Positions 17-38,954 of a DNA stretch of 64,000 bases are shown here, one piece after another. This DNA comes from a phage, in the sequence record OR896157.1. One strand, given 5' to 3'. How positions within the stretch are numbered: the first letter of the stretch is position 1; each line of letters opens with the position of its first letter. Under the pieces are notes generated by a model. That model made no database searches. It had not been told where the DNA came from and saw only the letters and a program-made list of their open reading frames with translations. Made by a program: the position numbers and the translations under genes.

Positions 17-784
17 TCATTTCCATTTGCCTTTGTAGTCAGATTTCTTAACATCAATCCGGCCGGTTTGACGATAATGGTCAACCAGATAGAAATGACG
101 TTCATACACATGCAGAGACCCAGCGTTCCAAATAATGTCGCCTGGAACATATTTTTCACCAGAGCCTGCATTAACTGTTTCTACTAATGATTCTAACACA
201 TATTTCTGCCAAGCATAATCATTGCGGAAACCAAATACAACATCATTGCTTCGCATATTAACGACAGCGTTTACACGACCATCACGAATAAGATATTGAA
301 CTGTGTTAGTGCACATGAAATCACTCATACCATCACGTTCAAAATCAACTTGCATACTTGGACGAGTGTAAATCATAATTGCGCGGCGAGAGTCTGGTTT
401 TTCAATCAGCTCAGTTGCACAGAATGAGAATTGATTATAGTTTTCAGCAGACCAGATTGCCCAGCCATAGTTTGAGTTAATTTCACCCTTTGAAGATGAA
501 ACTTGTTCCCAAATTGCCGGAGTACCACCCGGAATATCTTTCACGAACAGAGACTTGGATTTGTACCACGCAAGTTCACGTTCAACATATTCTTGGTTAA
601 CTGTTCCGAAAATTGAATCTTCGGTTACTACAAAAGATGGACCAATTAACTCAATGGTCTTTGCGCCAGTTTTGTCAATTACAAACATCTCGTTGAACAG
701 AGCATGGCACAGTTCATCACGAATATCTTCGTTAGTCAGTGGAGTTACAATCATTTTGCCTCTTCGTAGTTTTTCTTCATACAA
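17..784 (-). CDS. 42: dCMP hydroxymethylase (T4 gp42)
   Basis: 255-aa ORF closely matching remembered T4 gp42 over full length (e.g. SDFMCTNTVQYLIRD, NMRSNDVVFGFRNDYAWQKYV). Confidence 0.93.
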   Translation of the reverse strand: MYEEKLRRGKMIVTPLTNEDIRDELCHALFNEMFVIDKTGAKTIELIGPSFVVTEDSIFGTVNQEYVERELAWYKSKSLFVKDIPGGTPAIWEQVSSSKGEINSNYGWAIWSAENYNQFSFCATELIEKPDSRRAIMIYTRPSMQVDFERDGMSDFMCTNTVQYLIRDGRVNAVVNMRSNDVVFGFRNDYAWQKYVLESLVETVNAGSGEKYVPGDIIWNAGSLHVYERHFYLVDHYRQTGRIDVKKSDYKGKWK

Positions 785-1191
785 CGTTTAAATGCTTCAT
801 ATTGGCCAGAAGACCTGAAGTTTTCAAATGCGTTGATATTTTTGCGGGTAGGATTATTATACATTGTTTGATATAAAGCAGCACCATGGAATTCAACGAT
901 AGCTTGGCACTTACGAGCAGCTACTCGCTTTTCATAAGTAGCGTCAAGTTCTCGCTGCTTTTTCATAACGCGTGCTTGGTCACGAGCGATAGGGTCATTA
1001 GCCTGCTGCTGAGCAAGATATTCTTCGCCTTCACGAATAGAAGACTGCTTGACCTGCGGAGTTGAACGAGCATACACCAGACCAGTGCCGCCTACATACT
1101 TAACTTGCCCTACAGTACTAGCATGAACAGTGTCTCCTTGATAAGCACAACCTGCCAGTAACATAGCAGCAGCTACTGCTAAAAATTTCAT
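751..1191 (-). CDS. predicted lipoprotein (signal peptide + lipobox LLAGC) at the imm locus position
   Basis: 146-aa ORF between 43 and 42; N-terminal hydrophobic signal with LAGC lipobox; not similar to T4 Imm by eye. Confidence 0.55.
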   Translation of the reverse strand: MKFLAVAAAMLLAGCAYQGDTVHASTVGQVKYVGGTGLVYARSTPQVKQSSIREGEEYLAQQQANDPIARDQARVMKKQRELDATYEKRVAARKCQAIVEFHGAALYQTMYNNPTRKNINAFENFRSSGQYEAFKRCMKKNYEEAK

Positions 1192-1486: not shown

Positions 1487-4195
1487 TTAGAAATCAAACA
1501 TATTGTCTAAAGACGCTTTTTCTTCATAGTCTAATCCAGAAGCTTCTGACATACCAGCAAGTGGCTTAACGAAAGACTTTTGGAACAGAGTCGTATAGTC
1601 CAACCAAGCCAGAACATCTTGACGAATTTCCTGCGGAAGTTCAGTACCTGATGGCCAGGCGATACACTTGTCACCGAATGGGTTACCCTGACGAAGTGGA
1701 AGAACCATCACCTTGTTACCCTCGAGAATCGGAGTGACAGAGAATCCTGCCGTTGCACGATTATAAGTCAGTGCACCACGAACGTGATATGGACATTTCA
1801 GACCAGGGAAACCATTATCGTCATATTTACCAATGTCATTACAAGTTTTAACTTCTGCAATAACTTTGTAGTCCAGCTGACGATATTCCTTCTCAAACTG
1901 TTTGTAGTATTCTTGCAGTGATTCTTCGCCTTCTTGAACCATACGACGAATACTTTCTTCCAGTGCTTTCTGAACTGCTTTTGGCGTAGAAGACTGCTGA
2001 GTTTCCATGCCCATAATCTTCAAGTGTGGTTCAGCATAACGCTTATCTTCCATGTCGTAAACGTTCAGTGCATAACGTTTCTTAGCTTTCCAGAATCCAC
2101 CACAACCTTTTGAACCAAGCGGCGGACATGAAATAGCTTCTCGGTCCATGTGCATAAGATGTTCACGGTTATTGAAATATTCGCACAGTTCACGATAAGC
2201 AGTATCAATCATCGGTTCCATTTTCTTCTTACCGAATTGGTTCATAAATTCAACCACTTCGTCAGTCGTTTTGAAACGTTCAAGACCTACTTTTTCAATA
2301 ACTTTGTCAACAGAAACGTAGATTGAGTCAGTATCACCTGCTGCGATGAAATCAAATCCTTCAGTTCCACACACTTTATTCAGATACTCGTTAACTTTAC
2401 GAGCAATCCAACGAATACCTACTTGACCAAACAGTGTAATAGCAGATGCGTTACGAAGGTCATAATAACGGAAGTAGATGTTACCCAAAGCACCATAAAG
2501 ACTGTTGATAAGAATCTTACGGTTCAACTGGTTTGTGTTTGCTAGAATAGCAGCAGCTTCACATCGAGCCAGCATAGTTTCCAACACCAACTTCGTGTAC
2601 TTATTCAGTGATGCTTTCTGTTCGTCAGTGTACTGAGTGTAACGAGTTTCATCTGGAGTATCAATGTCACCGAATACGCCAGCTGCCAGAACTTTCTTAA
2701 TTTCTTCTGCGTTACGTTCTTCTGCGAACATCTTTTTCTTCCAATCTTTACGCTGGAAGAATACCTTAGCGATTTCTACTGGGATGACACCTTCAATATC
2801 TTTACGATACATCCAACCGTTCGGTGAGCAAGAATACTCGTCACTTGGACGTGGTGCAGTCTTATTGATATAAGCTTCAATATCATAAAGTTTGAATTGA
2901 CCAACAATAGTTTCCGGAGAAATATTCACCTGACGAATGATACTCGGATACAGAGATGTTAAGTCAAAACTCATGATGTACTTACGAGCGCATGCTAATG
3001 GTTCAAATACATATGCACCTGGATAACTTTGCTTGATATGACGCTTACCTTGAGGAACAACTTTGTTCTGTTCTTTCAGGGAGTTAAAGATAATTGCGTC
3101 CCAAGTTTTAATCGGAGACATTACACCACCAAACGGCATCTTGGCATAATAAGACATACTAAGTGCCAGGTCAATGAATCCACGAACTCGGTCAATACCA
3201 CCTACGGACTCAACGTCCATAATGTTATAGCTAATGTATCGTTGGTGATTTGTTTCACGAAGTTTGTTAATTGGACCATCGTATGGCAACTTACCACGTT
3301 TAGTCTCGTATAGAGCGATGTAGTCCAAGTTATAAGTTGGTTGGTTCGTGAATGAATACTTCTTGTACAAATCCATGTAATCCAGAATTGTTACACCATC
3401 AATACTGAATACTTCTTTTTCACCGTACATGTTCTGAATGAGTTTTGAATTCACTCGATTGATTGGAGAGAATCGTTTCATTGAACGTTCACCCAATACA
3501 TGCTTAACACGGTTCATGATGTATGGAATATCGAAGCCTTCAATGTTCCAACCCGTGAAGATTGCTGGACGCTTTTGTTCCCAGAGATTGATATATTCCA
3601 GAAGAAGTTCTTTCTCTGAATGGAAAGGCATGTACACTACACGGTCGAGAATATGTTGTGGAACTTCGTCTCCACCTTCTTTATCACTTCGTGCAGCTAA
3701 CTTCGCGTCCCATTCTGAAACTGAGCCATACAGAGAATCTAACAAATCGAAAACGTAGAACTTATCATCGATTGAATCATAATGAGTGATTGCATCGATT
3801 TCGTACATAGCTTTCATTGGGTCTGGGAATTTATCACCTGTAACTTCGATGTCACAGTTCGCAACACGAATGAATTTCTTGTCATAAACAATTTCAGAAC
3901 CATAAGTGTCGGAGATATAAGCGAGTTTGAAGTCATCCATACCCATGGCTTCAAGACCGATATCTTCCATACGACGAATCCAATCACGAGCATCTTTCAT
4001 GGTTGGGAATGTGTTTTTGATACATGGTTTCCCATAGATATCAAAGAACTTTGTCTTCACACCTTGTTGAGCATGAGAAAACATAGTTGGAGAATATTCA
4101 ACTCGTCGTTGACGTTCTACACCATTGGAGTCAATATAACGTTCAATGATGTCATTACCTGCGGTTTCAATAGAGATATAAAATTCTTGTGCCAT
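1487..4195 (-). CDS. 43: DNA polymerase (T4 gp43, family B)
   Basis: 902-aa ORF collinear with remembered T4 gp43; exonuclease and polymerase motifs (DIE, YGDTDS, KILINSLYGALG). Confidence 0.97.
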   Translation of the reverse strand: MAQEFYISIETAGNDIIERYIDSNGVERQRRVEYSPTMFSHAQQGVKTKFFDIYGKPCIKNTFPTMKDARDWIRRMEDIGLEAMGMDDFKLAYISDTYGSEIVYDKKFIRVANCDIEVTGDKFPDPMKAMYEIDAITHYDSIDDKFYVFDLLDSLYGSVSEWDAKLAARSDKEGGDEVPQHILDRVVYMPFHSEKELLLEYINLWEQKRPAIFTGWNIEGFDIPYIMNRVKHVLGERSMKRFSPINRVNSKLIQNMYGEKEVFSIDGVTILDYMDLYKKYSFTNQPTYNLDYIALYETKRGKLPYDGPINKLRETNHQRYISYNIMDVESVGGIDRVRGFIDLALSMSYYAKMPFGGVMSPIKTWDAIIFNSLKEQNKVVPQGKRHIKQSYPGAYVFEPLACARKYIMSFDLTSLYPSIIRQVNISPETIVGQFKLYDIEAYINKTAPRPSDEYSCSPNGWMYRKDIEGVIPVEIAKVFFQRKDWKKKMFAEERNAEEIKKVLAAGVFGDIDTPDETRYTQYTDEQKASLNKYTKLVLETMLARCEAAAILANTNQLNRKILINSLYGALGNIYFRYYDLRNASAITLFGQVGIRWIARKVNEYLNKVCGTEGFDFIAAGDTDSIYVSVDKVIEKVGLERFKTTDEVVEFMNQFGKKKMEPMIDTAYRELCEYFNNREHLMHMDREAISCPPLGSKGCGGFWKAKKRYALNVYDMEDKRYAEPHLKIMGMETQQSSTPKAVQKALEESIRRMVQEGEESLQEYYKQFEKEYRQLDYKVIAEVKTCNDIGKYDDNGFPGLKCPYHVRGALTYNRATAGFSVTPILEGNKVMVLPLRQGNPFGDKCIAWPSGTELPQEIRQDVLAWLDYTTLFQKSFVKPLAGMSEASGLDYEEKASLDNMFDF

Positions 4196-19918: not shown

Positions 19919-20344
19919 TTAAATATCTGAATTCATCCAATCAATTGCTGATTGAGGTAAACATACTATCACAGAAAAGAATAAAGCAAGTACATAAGTG
20001 ATAACATAAAGGAATGCTGAACCAAATGACCAAGCAGCATTCCAGCCTTGACGATACTCTGAATAGATTAACTCAGGTCGTATTTCCAAATCGTACATTG
20101 AACCAACTTGTGCCATGCTATAAAATGCAGGTGAAATTTCTCTGTCAAATCTTCGACCATTTTGGTCTTCATAAACAGCAATGAATTCCAGATGAGAATA
20201 TTTTCCAGTTGAAGTTCCGGAATAAAGTTGAACTAATTCTGCTTTAACGAGCTGTTCCTTTGAAAAGTCAGGACGCACATCAGTAAAAATAGAGAAACAC
20301 CAAAAGCAAATTGCCGCTACAAGAAATTTCATGCGAGTTGTCAT
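19919..20344 (-). CDS. hypothetical membrane protein
   Basis: 141-aa ORF with N- and C-terminal hydrophobic helices. Confidence 0.45.
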   Translation of the reverse strand: MTTRMKFLVAAICFWCFSIFTDVRPDFSKEQLVKAELVQLYSGTSTGKYSHLEFIAVYEDQNGRRFDREISPAFYSMAQVGSMYDLEIRPELIYSEYRQGWNAAWSFGSAFLYVITYVLALFFSVIVCLPQSAIDWMNSDI

Positions 20345-31489: not shown

Positions 31490-31882
31490 TTATTCCAAAG
31501 ACAGCAAGTATTTGGTTTGAAACACTATACCATTGATTTCGTCAATTGTGTTTCTGATTGCTCCAGGCATCTTGTCGTAGATGCTTTCAGCTTTTGCTGT
31601 GATGCTATCGAGCATCTCAATCGTGTCAGTAGGCAAATCCTGTTGCGATGGTATAGATGGGGTGTACTTTTTACCGGACCATCCAAGCCATTGCTCTCCG
31701 AACTTGTCGGTTAACTCAGGGATTGCATCAAAGAAGAAATTGTATGCTTTGTGACGAGCATAGCTTTTAGTTTCAAAATGAGCTGAGTGGAAGTATGATG
31801 CAGAAGCCATCAAAAGACCAATGAACTCATCCTCTGGAAGTTTCTTTCCGGTTGTTATGAAATCTTCAAATTTCGTTTTCAA
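31490..31882 (-). CDS. hypothetical protein
   Basis: 130-aa ORF. Confidence 0.5.
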   Translation of the reverse strand: MKTKFEDFITTGKKLPEDEFIGLLMASASYFHSAHFETKSYARHKAYNFFFDAIPELTDKFGEQWLGWSGKKYTPSIPSQQDLPTDTIEMLDSITAKAESIYDKMPGAIRNTIDEINGIVFQTKYLLSLE

Positions 31883-32141
31883 GTTTAACCTTCGTTAGAG
31901 AAACATATTGCTTACCAGCATGAACTCCTTCTTCAGTGCACTGGGTAGTACAACTTGAAGCTGCCCATTTCTGCTTAATGAAAGAAAAGAAACGTTCAGA
32001 TTCTTCTTTAGAAGGTTCTTTGAACTTGCTATATACTACCATAGCGCCATCAGCGTATTGTTCAAAGTTTGCTTCTTCTGCCGATACGGGCGAGATTAAA
32101 GTGGCTGCAAATAAAATCGCAGCCAATGCACGTAGAGTCAT
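31866..32141 (-). CDS. rI: lysis-inhibition regulator RI-like periplasmic protein
   Basis: trimmed to MTLRALAAILFAATLISPVSA signal/SAR-like N-terminus; C-terminal FFSFIKQKWAASSCTTQCTEEG resembles remembered T4 RI; lies before tk as in T4. Confidence 0.55.
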   Translation of the reverse strand: MTLRALAAILFAATLISPVSAEEANFEQYADGAMVVYSKFKEPSKEESERFFSFIKQKWAASSCTTQCTEEGVHAGKQYVSLTKVKLENEI

Positions 32142-32148
32142 AAAAGCC

Positions 32149-32361
32149 TCAGCGTTGTCCTGTATTAAGTTTGTGCTGAAGAACAGCCTTAACTTTATCG
32201 AGGTATTTTTGCAGCTGGCGTTTACGCAAATAGTCTGGGCGTGCACCATGCTGGCGAAACTCTTCGTTTAGACTTGAGATAGCGTGGCCAATCTCGCACT
32301 TAATTTCTTCCAGTTGAGATACACCAAGATTACGAAGTTGCTTATCGTTCAAATGCTTCAT
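32149..32361 (-). CDS. hypothetical protein
   Basis: 70-aa ORF preceded by late-promoter motif. Confidence 0.5.
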   Translation of the reverse strand: MKHLNDKQLRNLGVSQLEEIKCEIGHAISSLNEEFRQHGARPDYLRKRQLQKYLDKVKAVLQHKLNTGQR

Positions 32362-33114: not shown

Positions 33115-33714
33115 CTATTCATAAATACCAGTCATTTCACACCAATGTTTTCGACAGAGTGAGACGTATTTGTCTTCACCACCTAATTCAATAGTATCAC
33201 CTTCTACGATAGCATTTCCTTCTTGGTCAACACGAGCAACCATTGTTGCTTTACGACCACAATGGCAAACACCCTTCAGTTCGCAGAGTTTATCTGCAGT
33301 TGCCAGAAGAGCGGCAGAGCCCTTAAATAGGTTACCACGGAAATCTGTACGAAGTCCATAGGCCATCACTGGAGTATTATAGAGGTCAACAATTTGACAT
33401 AATTGAAGAACGTGAGACTGGGTCAAGAATTGAGCTTCGTCAACAAACACACAGTGAATATCTTTTTGAGTCTGCGCCCATTTGAAAAACTCAAGAATGT
33501 CCATGTCTTCAGTGATGGTATTTGCTTCAGCATGTAGACCAACACGAGATACAACTTCATTTGCTGAATCTCGCGTGTCAATAGCTGGCTTAAGAATGAG
33601 CGTTCCCATTCCACGCTCTTTATAGTTATGAGCTGCTGTAAGCAGAGATGCTGATTTACCAGCATTCATTGAAGCATAGTTAAAATAAAGCTGAGCCATT
33701 ATTCGCCGTCCCAA
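33115..33714 (-). CDS. tk: thymidine kinase
   Basis: 199-aa ORF; AAMNAGKSASLL P-loop, zinc ribbon CHCG...C; strong match to remembered T4 Tk. Confidence 0.93.
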   Translation of the reverse strand: MGRRIMAQLYFNYASMNAGKSASLLTAAHNYKERGMGTLILKPAIDTRDSANEVVSRVGLHAEANTITEDMDILEFFKWAQTQKDIHCVFVDEAQFLTQSHVLQLCQIVDLYNTPVMAYGLRTDFRGNLFKGSAALLATADKLCELKGVCHCGRKATMVARVDQEGNAIVEGDTIELGGEDKYVSLCRKHWCEMTGIYE

Positions 33715-34154
33715 TCAACTACAATAATATCAACATTTGGAGTGAACATATTAATTAATGCTTCAATCTTTTCCCAATCGCCACCAGCAATGCCGGCGCC
33801 AATGCGAGGAATATAAACATCCATTTTGAACAAAGAACCAGATAAGAATTTGTCCATTTTCTGAAAAGCATTAATTAATGCGCCATAATCAAGATTAGGA
33901 CCTGGTTCGTATTGAGTGTAAAGATTAAAGCAAGCACCACCATTTAATGCTAACGCTAAGCTAAAAGTTCCAAGCTTTTTATGGTCAGCATAATCTGTAG
34001 CTGCTTTGTCAGTTGACAAAATAACCGGAAATTTTGAAGCAAGTTGTCCTGCTACGCCAGCACCCATAGTATGGAAACAGTTACAACCATGAGCAATAAC
34101 TTTGCCTTCAGAATATAGCTTAACAATATCGCCTTTAATGTAATTTACAATCAT
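33699..34154 (-). CDS. macro-domain protein (ADP-ribose binding/processing)
   Basis: 151-aa ORF; macro signatures HGCNCFHTMGAGVAGQL and IGAGIAGGDWEKIEALI. Confidence 0.6.
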   Translation of the reverse strand: MIVNYIKGDIVKLYSEGKVIAHGCNCFHTMGAGVAGQLASKFPVILSTDKAATDYADHKKLGTFSLALALNGGACFNLYTQYEPGPNLDYGALINAFQKMDKFLSGSLFKMDVYIPRIGAGIAGGDWEKIEALINMFTPNVDIIVVDWDGE

Positions 34155-34570
34155 CTTTTCCTCAACTCAGGTATGCTTTTAAATTGATAAGTAGCGTAGT
34201 TTTCAAATTCATCGTAAACTCGTGCATAAATTTCTTCGCCACATGTTAACTTTTTGAAAGACTTCAAATCTCTTTCAGAAAAATCTATCGATACTCCGTT
34301 GATGATTCCGGAGGATTTGGCTCCGCAACCTCGAAAATGAATTGAACCACCCGGAATAATAGCTTGGTCTTCTTTGTTAGAGTAATTGTAAAATGATACA
34401 CCAAAAGCTTTCTTTTTAGGATAGTAAGAAACTTCAATATTCTTTTTAAACGAACCAGTTGTTTCAACTAGCTTACCATCAATAGCGTAGATATTATCAG
34501 GATAGCCTGGGAGTTTTTCCCAGGCATTTACCGATAATGGTAGAGCTAGCAGAAATGCTGCTATTTTCAC
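34151..34570 (-). CDS. hypothetical secreted protein (signal peptide)
   Basis: 139-aa ORF, N-terminal MKIAAFLLALPLSVNA. Confidence 0.5.
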   Translation of the reverse strand: MKIAAFLLALPLSVNAWEKLPGYPDNIYAIDGKLVETTGSFKKNIEVSYYPKKKAFGVSFYNYSNKEDQAIIPGGSIHFRGCGAKSSGIINGVSIDFSERDLKSFKKLTCGEEIYARVYDEFENYATYQFKSIPELRKR

Positions 34571-34893
34571 TTAGATAATCCCGCTATATACACCCTCAAT
34601 AACGTATCACGATATTCTTCGCATACGTTTACATCAGGTGCATTATCACACAACGACTCAAGGTCTTTAGCCTTACGAGCCACCAAGGTAGACCATTTAA
34701 AGCGGCTACCAGAATCAGTTTGTCCTTCAGCATAAGTTTTGTCAAAGTCAAATGACAAAATGTTCAAACACTCTGTATTAGTCTTAGTGCAGAATTGCTT
34801 TGCTAATACTAAAGAATCATCTTGTTCAGTAGCAAAATCAACTTTACACCCAGATAGAGCAAAAACTATTAGAAGTACAAACAACTTTTTCAT
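34567..34893 (-). CDS. hypothetical lipoprotein (lipobox LSGC)
   Basis: 108-aa ORF, signal peptide + Cys; several further Cys. Confidence 0.5.
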   Translation of the reverse strand: MKKLFVLLIVFALSGCKVDFATEQDDSLVLAKQFCTKTNTECLNILSFDFDKTYAEGQTDSGSRFKWSTLVARKAKDLESLCDNAPDVNVCEEYRDTLLRVYIAGLSK

Positions 34894-35441
34894 TATTCCA
34901 CCGTATAATGAAGTATTTTACGAGATTTCAAGTAATTCGCCTTTGCTAATACTTCAGAGGCGTACTTGTTGCCGGCTTTCCACTTGTTTCCTGCGTTGTA
35001 TGATGCTATGGCTTTTCTCATATCACCGTTATGACGGTCTAACCAATAACTTAACTCAATATACGCCCAAGCGGCGGAGTGCTTCCGGCTCTTTGCCATG
35101 CGGATGATTTCAGCGTCTGTCATTGACCATCCGGCTTGTTTAACTCTTTCCCTAAGTGTAGGAAGATAATTTTGAAATATCCCGTAAGCTTGATGCCCAT
35201 GTTTACCAGTTGTACGTAAGCCTGCAGAACTTTCCTGCCAGACTAGTGCAGCCATAATGTAACCAAGTCCATCATTGTCATAGCGCTTACTATGGTCTTT
35301 ATACTTCCCATTCTTCTGAAATTGTTCACCAAACGAATATGCGTATTGCAAATTGTCGAGTTGGACATTACTGAAGGTGTGTTCGGACGCGAATCCTAGA
35401 GACGAAACTAGGAGTAACGCCGCGCATAGAGCTTTTTTCAT
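34893..35441 (-). CDS. secreted lytic transglycosylase-like protein (SLT domain)
   Basis: 182-aa ORF; signal peptide; SLT-type motif LVWQESS...AYGIFQ. Confidence 0.55.
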   Translation of the reverse strand: MKKALCAALLLVSSLGFASEHTFSNVQLDNLQYAYSFGEQFQKNGKYKDHSKRYDNDGLGYIMAALVWQESSAGLRTTGKHGHQAYGIFQNYLPTLRERVKQAGWSMTDAEIIRMAKSRKHSAAWAYIELSYWLDRHNGDMRKAIASYNAGNKWKAGNKYASEVLAKANYLKSRKILHYTVE

Positions 35442-35459: not shown

Positions 35460-35930
35460 CTATAACTTGATAATCTTTGTGCTGATTTTACCTTTCAAGC
35501 GTTTATCATTTACGAATGCCATGCGACATTGCATGGAGTGACCGCGGAACGGATGTTCTGGGTTTGGTAGAGAGACAGTCATTCCAAGCCATAGAGTACC
35601 ATCTGTGATTTCCAGACGTTGAGGTCTGTACTCTACTTCTGGGTCAATTTCCGATGGGTCAATTGGAAGCATCGGCATTTCTAAGAACTCGTGAATTTCT
35701 GTTACATGGTTGTGTACTTTGTGGAACAGAGCGAACACATACTCTTCATCAATTTCTCGCTGGATAGCACGGTCCAGGAGGTGATTAGAATATTTAATAA
35801 AGAAAGCTGGAATACCAGCAGATGCGCAAGCACTACGTATAGAATCGTTTACACTCTTGAATTCAGTCTCAAAGCGGCGACGTAGCTTGTTTCGGCGGAT
35901 GAATACTTCTGGGTTAGTTGTCATTTTCAA
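35460..35930 (-). CDS. regB: endoribonuclease RegB
   Basis: 156-aa ORF closely matching remembered T4 RegB (EVFIRRNKLRRxFExEF, HLLDRAIQREIDE, QCRMA). Confidence 0.92.
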   Translation of the reverse strand: MKMTTNPEVFIRRNKLRRRFETEFKSVNDSIRSACASAGIPAFFIKYSNHLLDRAIQREIDEEYVFALFHKVHNHVTEIHEFLEMPMLPIDPSEIDPEVEYRPQRLEITDGTLWLGMTVSLPNPEHPFRGHSMQCRMAFVNDKRLKGKISTKIIKL

Positions 35931-35982: not shown

Positions 35983-36255
35983 TCAGTAGTTATGGTCATC
36001 GTAGAACACTTGAAGCAGAACATTGCTACGCAGCTTCTTGGTGTCCGCGATGCGTTGACGGAGCTTTGAGATTTTGTCCTGAACAGCATTGAAAGCATCA
36101 GAAGTCTTAGGGTCATGAAGACCCATAGACTCATCCACAAGCTGCTCCATCTTTTCTTCCATAGCATTGATAGCTTCGGAGAAAGACTCGGAGACTTTGT
36201 TGCGGATAGACATTAATACTTTTCTTCTGGTTGAAATACTGAACGGCATGCCCAC
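35983..36255 (-). CDS. hypothetical protein
   Basis: 90-aa ORF. Confidence 0.45.
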   Translation of the reverse strand: MGMPFSISTRRKVLMSIRNKVSESFSEAINAMEEKMEQLVDESMGLHDPKTSDAFNAVQDKISKLRQRIADTKKLRSNVLLQVFYDDHNY

Positions 36256-36494
36256 ATAGAAGCTTCTTTCAAACGATCAATTGCATTACGAATCTGAGTG
36301 ATTCTAGAATGAGCTAGATCGAATTCTTCGTCGCTTATAGTGTCAACATCCAAGTCCATGTAAACTTTGACATGCTCTTCTTCTAAGGCTTTGAAAATCA
36401 AGCCAAGACGTAATTCAGCATCTTTGATAGCGTTCACTTTACCAATTTTGTCATCAGTGTGTGGTTTATAGCCTTTGATATCTTCAATTGACAT
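36213..36494 (-). CDS. hypothetical protein
   Basis: 93-aa ORF. Confidence 0.45.
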   Translation of the reverse strand: MSIEDIKGYKPHTDDKIGKVNAIKDAELRLGLIFKALEEEHVKVYMDLDVDTISDEEFDLAHSRITQIRNAIDRLKEASMWACRSVFQPEEKY

Positions 36495-36856
36495 TACATT
36501 TCCTTAGTGAAAGTGCGTGAAATAACGTCGCGCTGTTGCTCTGGAGTTAGAGCATTAAAACGAACGGCATAGCCAGAAACACGAATAGTCAGCTGAGGAT
36601 ATTTTTCTGGATGTTGAACTGCATCTTCTAAAGTTTCTTTAGACAGCACGTTCACGTTCAAATGCTGTCCACCTTCAACTTTAACTGTAGGCTTGGTTTC
36701 AATTCCAATTTCACGAGATTCAAAACCAAAGAAAGTTTCTACATCAACTATAGAATCTTCTGGCAAAGTTTTAGATACAATCACACGGGCTTTATCACCA
36801 TCTTCAAGATAAATTGTGCCTTTATGAGTGCCGTTCAAAATTTGATATGCGTTCAT
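36494..36856 (-). CDS. grcA: autonomous glycyl radical cofactor GrcA (YfiD-like)
   Basis: 120-aa ORF; C-terminal ~80 aa near-identical to remembered E. coli GrcA ([41 protein letters not shown]). Confidence 0.85.
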
Positions 36857-38176: not shown

Positions 38177-38473
38177 TTAACTAAACGGGTCGTGAAGCTT
38201 ATTACCAATACGACGGAACACTTTAGCTGCAAATTTATTGGAAGGGTTATCAACCATAATTTTGCGCATGTGACCGGTCGCGACTGTTCGAGCAGCCTTA
38301 TAACCAGCAATGTTATCTTTCAAAGTAATTCGACCTTTTCCTTTAGGGTCGTCAATGGTCACTTTGTAAGTTCCCATATCTTCGCCAGGCTTAATTTCTT
38401 CAATCCAGATATAACCACCTGGAACTCGCTTTTGTTCAGCTGCTTCATTTAAAAATTCATTATAGGTTTTCAT
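38177..38473 (-). CDS. internal head protein (capsid-targeting sequence [11 protein letters not shown])
   Basis: 98-aa ORF from internal ATG; N-terminus matches T4 IP capsid-targeting consensus MKTYxEFIxE; adjacent to e as ipII/ipIII in T4. Confidence 0.6.
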
Positions 38474-38954
38474 ATGCTTTCCATGTTCCAACTCGGAATG
38501 TTTCAATTACTCGTTTAGCACGATTTGGTGTCTGACGATACCACTTGGAATTAGCAAGCTCTTTTGCAGCCGCTTCCCATTGTTTTGATTTAAGCAGACG
38601 CATTGATGCTGGGAAACCAGCTACACCTGTTACGCCCATCTGAAACACCATATTAATAAGTGCAGCACGACGAACTCCATCAAGTACATCATATACTGGT
38701 TTTAATACAGCATTTCCGAGAATCCCTCGAGTTGCTTTATCGACGTCTTTCGCAAAAATAGCTTCTGCTTCAGCTTTTGTGATTTGACCATTACATGGAC
38801 GCCCCACAAGCTTATCAAGTTCTCGTTTAGCAGCATCAAGAGAAGGGTCACGTGTCAAAAGGTGACCGATACCGATTGTCCAAAAACCTTCAGTATCTTT
38901 ATAGATTTTAGAATCGTATCCTTCATCGATACGAAGCATGCCAAAAATGTCCAT
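38460..38954 (-). CDS. e: lysozyme (T4 e, endolysin)
   Basis: 164-aa ORF, near-identical core to remembered T4 lysozyme ([32 protein letters not shown]). Confidence 0.96.

Follow-up and report, generated by a model that had tools for sequence, protein, structure and literature searches.

The window analysed here, a 64,000-nucleotide stretch of phage DNA from sequence record OR896157.1, carries on its minus strand three consecutive genes, vs.1, vs and an unnamed open reading frame (ORF) of 139 codons with a GTG start (ORF139), which together occupy the interval between regB and tk.4 (Table 1). Over 3.5 kb around this trio, Enterobacter phage PG7 (Karamvirus, Tevenvirinae) is 98.5% identical to the window, which, judging from its sequence, is a PG7-like Karamvirus and thus a T4-like phage (Straboviridae). 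The order regB-vs.1-vs-tk.4 is common to T4 and the window, and the window adds ORF139 between vs and tk.4. All three products of the trio are predicted to leave the cytoplasm via the Sec pathway, one of them has the signatures of an SLT-type lytic transglycosylase, and the three genes are kept together, with overlapping junctions, in many T4-like phages.

A rule-based test for export (lysine or arginine near the N-terminus, a hydrophobic 9-mer, and either small residues at positions -3 and -1 or a lipobox) is passed by only 6 of the 128 non-overlapping ORFs of the window, and the trio accounts for three of these six. The N-termini of Vs.1 and ORF139 have the n-h-c organisation of Sec signals with small residues at -3 and -1, and Vs has a charged n-region and a hydrophobic h-region followed by a lipobox of the form [LVI][ASTVI][GAS]C (MKKLFVLLIVFA-LSGC). 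The scan places the cuts at LGFA/S in Vs.1 and at VNA/W in ORF139. At the loci of about 15 diverged phages, from about ten genera, every member of the three families begins with basic residues and a hydrophobic stretch that lead to a cleavage site with small residues, and 35 further Vs relatives retrieved from a large protein collection have N-termini of the same kind. The sequence of these N-termini has diverged freely and their character has been kept; the conserved cysteines are confined to the mature parts, with four in Vs and two in ORF139. A preliminary description of the locus had proposed three consecutive exported proteins, the middle one a lipoprotein with several cysteines and another an SLT-motif protein with a signal peptide, and each of these points is borne out by the ORFs themselves and by the retention of the signals in homologues. 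Sequence evidence thus gives good support both to export and to the assignment of Vs.1 to the SLT type. Further export-like N-termini occur elsewhere in the window, in a predicted lipoprotein of 146 residues (751-1191, minus strand, MKFLAVAAAMLLAGC...) and in a protein of 141 residues (19919-20344, minus strand, MTTRMKFLVAAICFW...).

Vs.1 is 65% identical to T4 Vs.1 over 177 residues and matches phrog_600 (E-value 2e-62). The Pfam SLT profile (PF01464) scores 23.6 bits over residues 62-155, above its gathering threshold of 21.3 bits (E-value 4e-5), and it matches 13 of 13 diverged Vs.1 homologues at E-values of 0.01 or below (best 1.7e-6). Family-1 lytic transglycosylases are recognised by a catalytic E-S at a helix end, a G-L-M-Q-type motif and an A-Y-N-x-G motif; in Vs.1 the E-S lies within WQESSAG (residues 68-74), and downstream of E70 follow G87-I-F-Q90, within AYGIFQ (residues 85-90), and S147-Y-N-A-G151. 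In an alignment of the 13 homologues, which reach down to 29% identity and include proteins of Ackermannviridae and Ounavirinae phages, E70, G87, Q90, Y148, N149, G151 and Y160 are invariant and S71 is at least 90% conserved. The best match of the Vs.1 family profile in the PDB is EtgA, the transglycosylase of the EPEC type III secretion system (8urn; E-value 0.015), with all motifs aligned; searches of the PDB with the single sequences of Vs.1, Vs and ORF139 returned nothing meaningful. A hydrophobic N-terminal segment equivalent to that of Vs.1 is present in 15 of 15 homologues examined, again including those of Ackermannviridae and Ounavirinae, and the mature protein is predicted to have 163 residues and an isoelectric point (pI) of 9.6. 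Relatives are encoded in approximately 2,000 phage records. The SLT similarity of T4 vs.1 was already stated by Nolan et al. (2006; PMC1524935), who credited earlier PSI-BLAST results, and a literature search on the function of Vs.1 found only this domain note and the tables of a recent transposon study, HIDEN-SEQ (see below). In several GenBank phage records, Vs.1 orthologues (including the one at locus L013, 1624-2175) are mislabelled 'RegB', 'site-specific RNA endonuclease' or 'endoribonuclease', which appears to be spill-over from the neighbouring regB, and one record labels its Vs.1 orthologue a C-type lysozyme.

Vs matches phrog_1256 (E-value 1e-30) and is 32% identical to T4 Vs in BLASTP (E-value 7e-8); a profile hidden Markov model of the family matches T4 Vs at an E-value of 1e-30, and all Vs relatives carry the precomputed domain PF26829. 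Cys16 would be the lipidated first residue of the mature protein and is followed at +2 by lysine, not aspartate. The L-x-G-C box is present in all seven Karamvirus-type homologues (P0007-P0013), in which residue +2 is lysine, arginine, glycine or asparagine but never aspartate, and it is restricted to this type of phage, whereas the Vs proteins of T4-type phages, Klebsiella phages and Acinetobacter phages have signal peptidase I sites of the A-x-A type. According to the enterobacterial sorting rule, lipoproteins with a residue other than aspartate at +2 go to the outer membrane, and this destination is therefore predicted for Vs. The mature protein has 93 residues and a pI of 4.7, whereas mature T4 Vs is predicted to have 11.0 kDa and a pI of 8.9. 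An AlphaFold2 model of mature Vs, built from a 36-sequence alignment, is a four-helix bundle (predicted local distance difference test, pLDDT, 86.4; predicted template-modelling score, pTM, 0.76), probably stabilised by two disulfides. Two other identities for Vs were rejected: NCBIfam matches to lipoproteins and spanins are sub-threshold noise, and a PHROG match to the Cor exclusion lipoprotein, on profile positions 1-70 of 78, is weak (E-value 0.003) and falls on the end with the signal and lipobox. Both are read as similarity of the signal and lipobox. In the RefSeq record of PG7, vs is split (locus L001, 3198-3395), such that a 65-residue product is annotated and the tblastn alignment falls into two parts. 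The ORF of 108 residues is intact in the window and in other Karamviruses, and the split in PG7 is due either to a frameshift or to faulty sequencing.

ORF139 matches phrog_4957, a family without assigned function (E-value 3e-52). The AlphaFold2 model of its mature part (123 residues) shows an immunoglobulin-like beta-sandwich with one helix (pLDDT 77, pTM 0.71); it was built from an alignment of only eight sequences, because few relatives were retrieved. BFVD models of relatives, which were made independently, agree with it at template-modelling scores of 0.86-0.87. The family occurs in 247 phage records, nearly always beside vs, and it is narrow: a collection of 1.84 billion proteins contains approximately 20 representative clusters of it, and some few of these are long, repetitive and probably spurious.

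The three genes are contiguous in Karamvirus, Klebsiella phages, Moonvirus, Gelderlandvirus, Tegunavirus, Serratia phage 92A1, Bragavirus, Gualtarvirus and Acinetobacter phage Acj61, and in Acj61 they remain so even though regB, tk.4 and tk are not adjacent. The junctions are overlaps of stop and start codons, and the TAATG (vs.1/vs) and NTGA (vs/ORF139) forms recur in most of nine diverged genomes checked. Such overlaps are the usual signature of translational coupling and thus suggest that the trio is co-translated. In Aeromonas phage 31, the slot between vs.1 and tk.4 (locus positions 2814-3254) holds a 146-residue ORF with a lipoprotein-like N-terminus (MKKSIATLIAIGMYGC...) that is recognised neither as Vs nor as ORF139, possibly a non-homologous replacement.

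Mutant data are available for the T4 genes. In the transposon study (HIDEN-SEQ preprint, 10.1101/2025.11.20.689424), vs and vs.1 are both classed as non-essential; nonetheless, insertions in them are approximately ten-fold fewer than in their neighbours in liquid lysogeny broth (LB), with mean counts of 26.6 for vs and 22.6 for vs.1 versus 178.6 for regB, 289.6 for tk.4 and 652 for vs.3 (supplementary table 6). On passing from LB to M9, vs insertions fall further (log2 fold change -2.19, adjusted p 0), as do vs.1 insertions, in their case with nominal significance only (-0.87, p 0.0055, adjusted 0.155); in the clinical strain CFE299, the decrease is significant for vs.1 (-1.20, adjusted p 0.015) and not for vs (-1.04). 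A clean deletion of T4 vs impairs plaques in M9 glucose (10.1101/2025.11.20.689424). The shared fitness cost of vs and vs.1 mutants indicates that the phage benefits from the cassette and that its role can be approached genetically. In the same data, regB insertions rise from LB to M9 (log2 fold change +1.17, p 0.049, adjusted 0.80; table 6), so that regB and the adjacent vs and vs.1 shift in opposite directions within one apparent transcription unit.

Table 1. Genes and sequence features around the vs.1-vs-ORF139 trio, in window coordinates
Feature	Position	Strand	Basis
rI	31872-32129	-	PG7/T4 comparison, tblastn
rI.1	32152-32361	-	PG7/T4 comparison, tblastn
tk	33115-33714	-	PG7/T4 comparison, tblastn
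tk.4	33699-34154	-	PG7/T4 comparison, tblastn
ATGA overlap joining ORF139 and tk.4	34151-34154	-	sequence
ORF139 (unnamed, 139 residues, GTG start)	34151-34570	-	ORF read from sequence
ORF139 signal peptide, residues 1-16, cut between VNA and WEK	34523-34570	-	rule-based scan
GTGA overlap, ORF139 start (GTG) on vs stop (TGA)	34567-34570	-	sequence
vs (108 residues)	34567-34893	-	ORF read from sequence
Vs lipobox L-S-G-C, residues 13-16	34846-34857	-	sequence
TAATG overlap joining vs.1 and vs	at 34893	-	sequence
vs.1 (182 residues)	34893-35441	-	ORF read from sequence
Codon (GAA) of predicted catalytic Glu70 of Vs.1, in W-Q-E-S-S	35232-35234	-	invariant column; aligned with EtgA E-S
Signal peptide of Vs.1 (residues 1-19, MKKALCAALLLVSSLGFAS), with the signal peptidase I cut predicted before EHTFSN	35385-35441	-	rule-based scan
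regB	35460-35930	-	PG7/T4 comparison, tblastn
Promoter-like site TTGAAA-17 nucleotides-GATTAT, in the 3' end of regB, approximately 30 nucleotides upstream of vs.1	35470-35498	-	consensus match only
vs.4	36213-36494	-	PG7/T4 comparison, tblastn
vs.6	36494-36856	-	PG7/T4 comparison, tblastn
endolysin e	38463-38954	-	PG7/T4 comparison, tblastn

Local gene names were taken from the PG7 and T4 annotations and from tblastn with T4 proteins, and all of these genes lie on the minus strand. The preliminary description had also called the trio early and separate from endolysin e. The second statement agrees with the position of e, whereas the first is supported by homology only. In its favour, the homologous T4 segment was deposited in GenBank in 1986 under the title '58.3 to 65.5 kb early region', and that record marks a potential -35/-10 pair upstream of its ORF 61.4 (vs.1), equivalent to the promoter-like site of the window. 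However, consensus scans of the region for promoters and terminators gave no more sites than shuffled sequence would lead one to expect, and no MotA-box middle promoter was found upstream of the trio; 'early' therefore rests on homology with T4. Upstream of regB lie homologues of T4 vs.4 (61% identity) and vs.6 (78%; annotated as a GrcA-like glycyl-radical cofactor), of which T4 Vs.4 is Acb2, a sponge acting against the cyclic-oligonucleotide-based anti-phage signalling system (CBASS). The tk.4 product, which adjoins the trio downstream, is a macrodomain protein with 51% identity to T4 Tk.4 and a Pfam Macro score slightly under threshold; T4 Tk.4 has been named AdfM, an anti-DarTG2 counter-defence factor, in a 2025 preprint.

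Taken as a whole, the trio may be a cassette of exported proteins for the remodelling of peptidoglycan, in which Vs.1 is an active transglycosylase that Vs and ORF139 assist as envelope factors, and we would give this reading slightly better than even chances. The window would then hold the form that this cassette, which T4-like phages conserve in the early region between regB and tk, takes in Karamvirus. Vs.1 would be an SLT-type lytic transglycosylase, soluble in the periplasm and nearest to small 'specialised' enzymes such as EtgA. Acting from the periplasm, with Glu70 as its catalytic acid, it would cleave glycan strands in the peptidoglycan of the host; enzymes of this class cleave non-hydrolytically and leave 1,6-anhydroMurNAc products. 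Vs would be lipid-anchored in Karamvirus, probably in the outer membrane, and soluble in T4 and most other genera, and Vs and ORF139 may position, restrain or otherwise modulate Vs.1, or take part in the same process in the envelope. Overall, the wall of the infected host would be remodelled to a limited extent, which would be non-essential but of benefit to the fitness of the phage, with a larger gain in minimal medium.

Several observations weigh against this proposal. The link between the genes is not obligatory, as neither Vs nor ORF139 was detected near the Vs.1 homologues of Dickeya phage Ds9CZ and Erwinia phage vEam_W_25 (Ackermannviridae/Ounavirinae), T4 lacks ORF139, three genes stand between vs.1 and vs in Slopekvirus-type phages, and the locus of Aeromonas phage 31 has no recognisable Vs. 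The lysozyme-like alpha-helical fold that Vs.1 would have is predicted through sequence profiles, and the match to EtgA is marginal. Mature Vs is acidic in the window and basic in T4, and no one property of its surface stands out as conserved. In the transposon data, part of the parallel depletion could be due to a polar effect of vs.1 insertions on vs, although polarity cannot explain the phenotype of vs itself. Finally, an envelope role does not explain the reported binding of T4 Vs to valyl-tRNA synthetase.

This last point concerns the label that the Vs family bears everywhere, 'valyl-tRNA synthetase modifier' (phrog_1256, RefSeq T4). According to papers that cite them, Müller and Marchin (1975/1977) found that T4 Vs binds the cytoplasmic valyl-tRNA ligase. 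If the label is taken at face value, Vs would be a cytoplasmic modifier of the synthetase, its N-terminus would be no working signal or would direct only partial export, and its adjacency to vs.1 would be accidental; the growth defect in minimal medium could also fit a role related to translation. Yet the cytoplasmic location that such binding needs is not the one predicted. An n-h-c signal is found in all of the approximately 45 family members examined, seven of which have a lipobox instead of an A-x-A site, and the four conserved cysteines fall in the mature part only. When T4 Vs is produced in the cytoplasm with an N-terminal His tag, it forms insoluble inclusion bodies (PMC8076793), in keeping with a protein whose usual place of folding is the periplasm. 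In the 1986 GenBank record, vs appears as 'ORF 60.9' without the vs assignment, and the name was thus attached later. The predicted 11.0 kDa of mature T4 Vs is close to the size of the purified synthetase-modifying factor, reportedly approximately 10 kDa, which speaks for the label; a mature size of 11 kDa would, however, itself imply cleavage of the signal and hence export. In addition, vs.1 insertions behave in T4 as vs insertions do. That Vs acts in the cytoplasm seems unlikely, although the chance is not negligible. The proposal that the Vs family is instead an exported, disulfide-bonded envelope protein, lipid-anchored in Karamvirus, that forms a periplasmic module with Vs.1 and, in many phages, with ORF139, is made tentatively and at somewhat less than even chances. 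If it is correct, the 'modification' of the synthetase would be a contact made after cell breakage, a side activity or a name placed on the wrong ORF, and the requirement for vs in minimal medium would be an envelope phenotype.

The three exported proteins might also have unrelated jobs and have been gathered independently in a zone of accessory genes. The region is indeed a known zone of variable small ORFs, in which ORF139 is absent from T4 and vs and vs.1 stand apart in Slopekvirus-type phages, and Vs.1 occurs alone in other phage families. Against such chance gathering stand the contiguity and overlapping junctions that are kept across nine genera while the flanks change, the rarity of export-like ORFs in the window, half of which belong to the trio, and the parallel fitness patterns of vs and vs.1 insertions in T4. 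We regard independence of the three genes as improbable, to about the same degree as a cytoplasmic Vs.

Superinfection exclusion and control of lysis, which the preliminary description had put forward as purposes of the trio, are both possible, and nothing found here favours either. In the first case, Vs, ORF139 or both might inhibit an incoming tail lysozyme or Vs.1 itself, as Spackle does gp5, or the altered wall might block later phages. The predicted periplasmic location, the placement in an early region, the small size and the cysteines, which recall Spackle, and the weak match of Vs to the Cor exclusion lipoprotein are consistent with such immunity. However, that match lies at the signal/lipobox end, and the T4 phenotypes, namely fitness defects in single-phage competition and in minimal medium, are not those obviously expected from exclusion. 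Moreover, a comparison with lysozyme-inhibitor folds, which the preliminary description had recommended, was negative: neither by fold nor by profile did Vs and ORF139 resemble Ivy, PliC/MliC, PliG or T4 Spackle, and the Vs family profile showed no relationship to T4 Spackle. An exclusion function is improbable, somewhat more so than the alternatives above. Much the same holds for an auxiliary role in lysis, in which Vs.1 would weaken or clear peptidoglycan in advance, making holin/endolysin lysis faster or fuller, above all in cells that grow slowly and have more cross-links in their wall. The enzyme is of a wall-degrading class, a distance of a few kb separates it from rI, rI.1 and endolysin e, and the vs defect is larger in minimal medium; however, the trio is located in an early region away from the late lysis genes, e is present and is sufficient for T4 lysis, and the T4 literature found reports no lysis phenotype, which makes this role similarly doubtful. 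That Vs.1 is a virion-borne entry enzyme such as T7 gp16 or PRD1 P7 is very improbable, since, although SLT domains are common in phage entry proteins and Vs.1 has weak PHROG matches to a lytic tail protein (E-value 2e-5), it is small, has a cleavable Sec signal and lies in an early region, where it is transcribed with regB and tk and not with structural genes.

An SLT-type enzyme at this position was already known from T4. The preliminary description did not mention this published similarity, nor that the genes are T4 vs.1 and vs together with a third family absent from T4. New are the recognition of a conserved, coupled trio in which every product is predicted to be exported, the like behaviour of T4 vs and vs.1 mutants, and the conflict between the label of Vs and its predicted location. 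The context deserves attention, as a Sec-exported lytic transglycosylase from the early region of a lytic phage is coupled to two further exported proteins, and the trio is kept across many genera of T4-like phages that infect Enterobacteriaceae and Acinetobacter. The conflict over Vs is, in our analysis, the most interesting open point: either a long-standing and widely propagated annotation is wrong or the protein has an unusual dual location, the candidates being association after lysis, dual location and mis-assignment.

Within the context of known systems, Vs and ORF139 resemble the inhibitors Ivy, PliC/MliC and PliG in their small size and periplasmic or lipoprotein location. T4 Spackle, the inhibitor of the gp5 tail lysozyme, is likewise small, exported, early and cysteine-containing and acts on a wall-degrading enzyme, and this likeness is a functional analogy only. 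T4 Vs (NP_049724; phrog_1256; PF26829) is homologous to the Vs of the window: its four cysteines occupy corresponding positions, its N-terminus also resembles a signal, and its gene likewise follows vs.1 directly, but the Karamvirus protein has a lipobox where T4 Vs has SASA/D. For neither protein does the predicted location suit the activity described, binding to a cytoplasmic enzyme. T4 Vs.1 (NP_049725; phrog_600) has the same length as its window counterpart, a signal-like N-terminus and the same place between regB and vs; it differs in nothing of substance and is its orthologue. Outside the T4-like phages, the nearest known enzymes are the specialised family-1 transglycosylases of the EtgA kind, among which VirB1 and IpgF also serve secretion systems. 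Vs.1 differs from EtgA in being encoded by an early-region gene of a lytic phage and in having no known transenvelope machine to serve, and the similarity is, as stated, marginal. Nonetheless, both are small, Sec-exported proteins with a single SLT domain, their E-S, G-x-x-Q and A-Y-N-A-G-Y motifs align, and both are encoded beside genes whose products function in the envelope.

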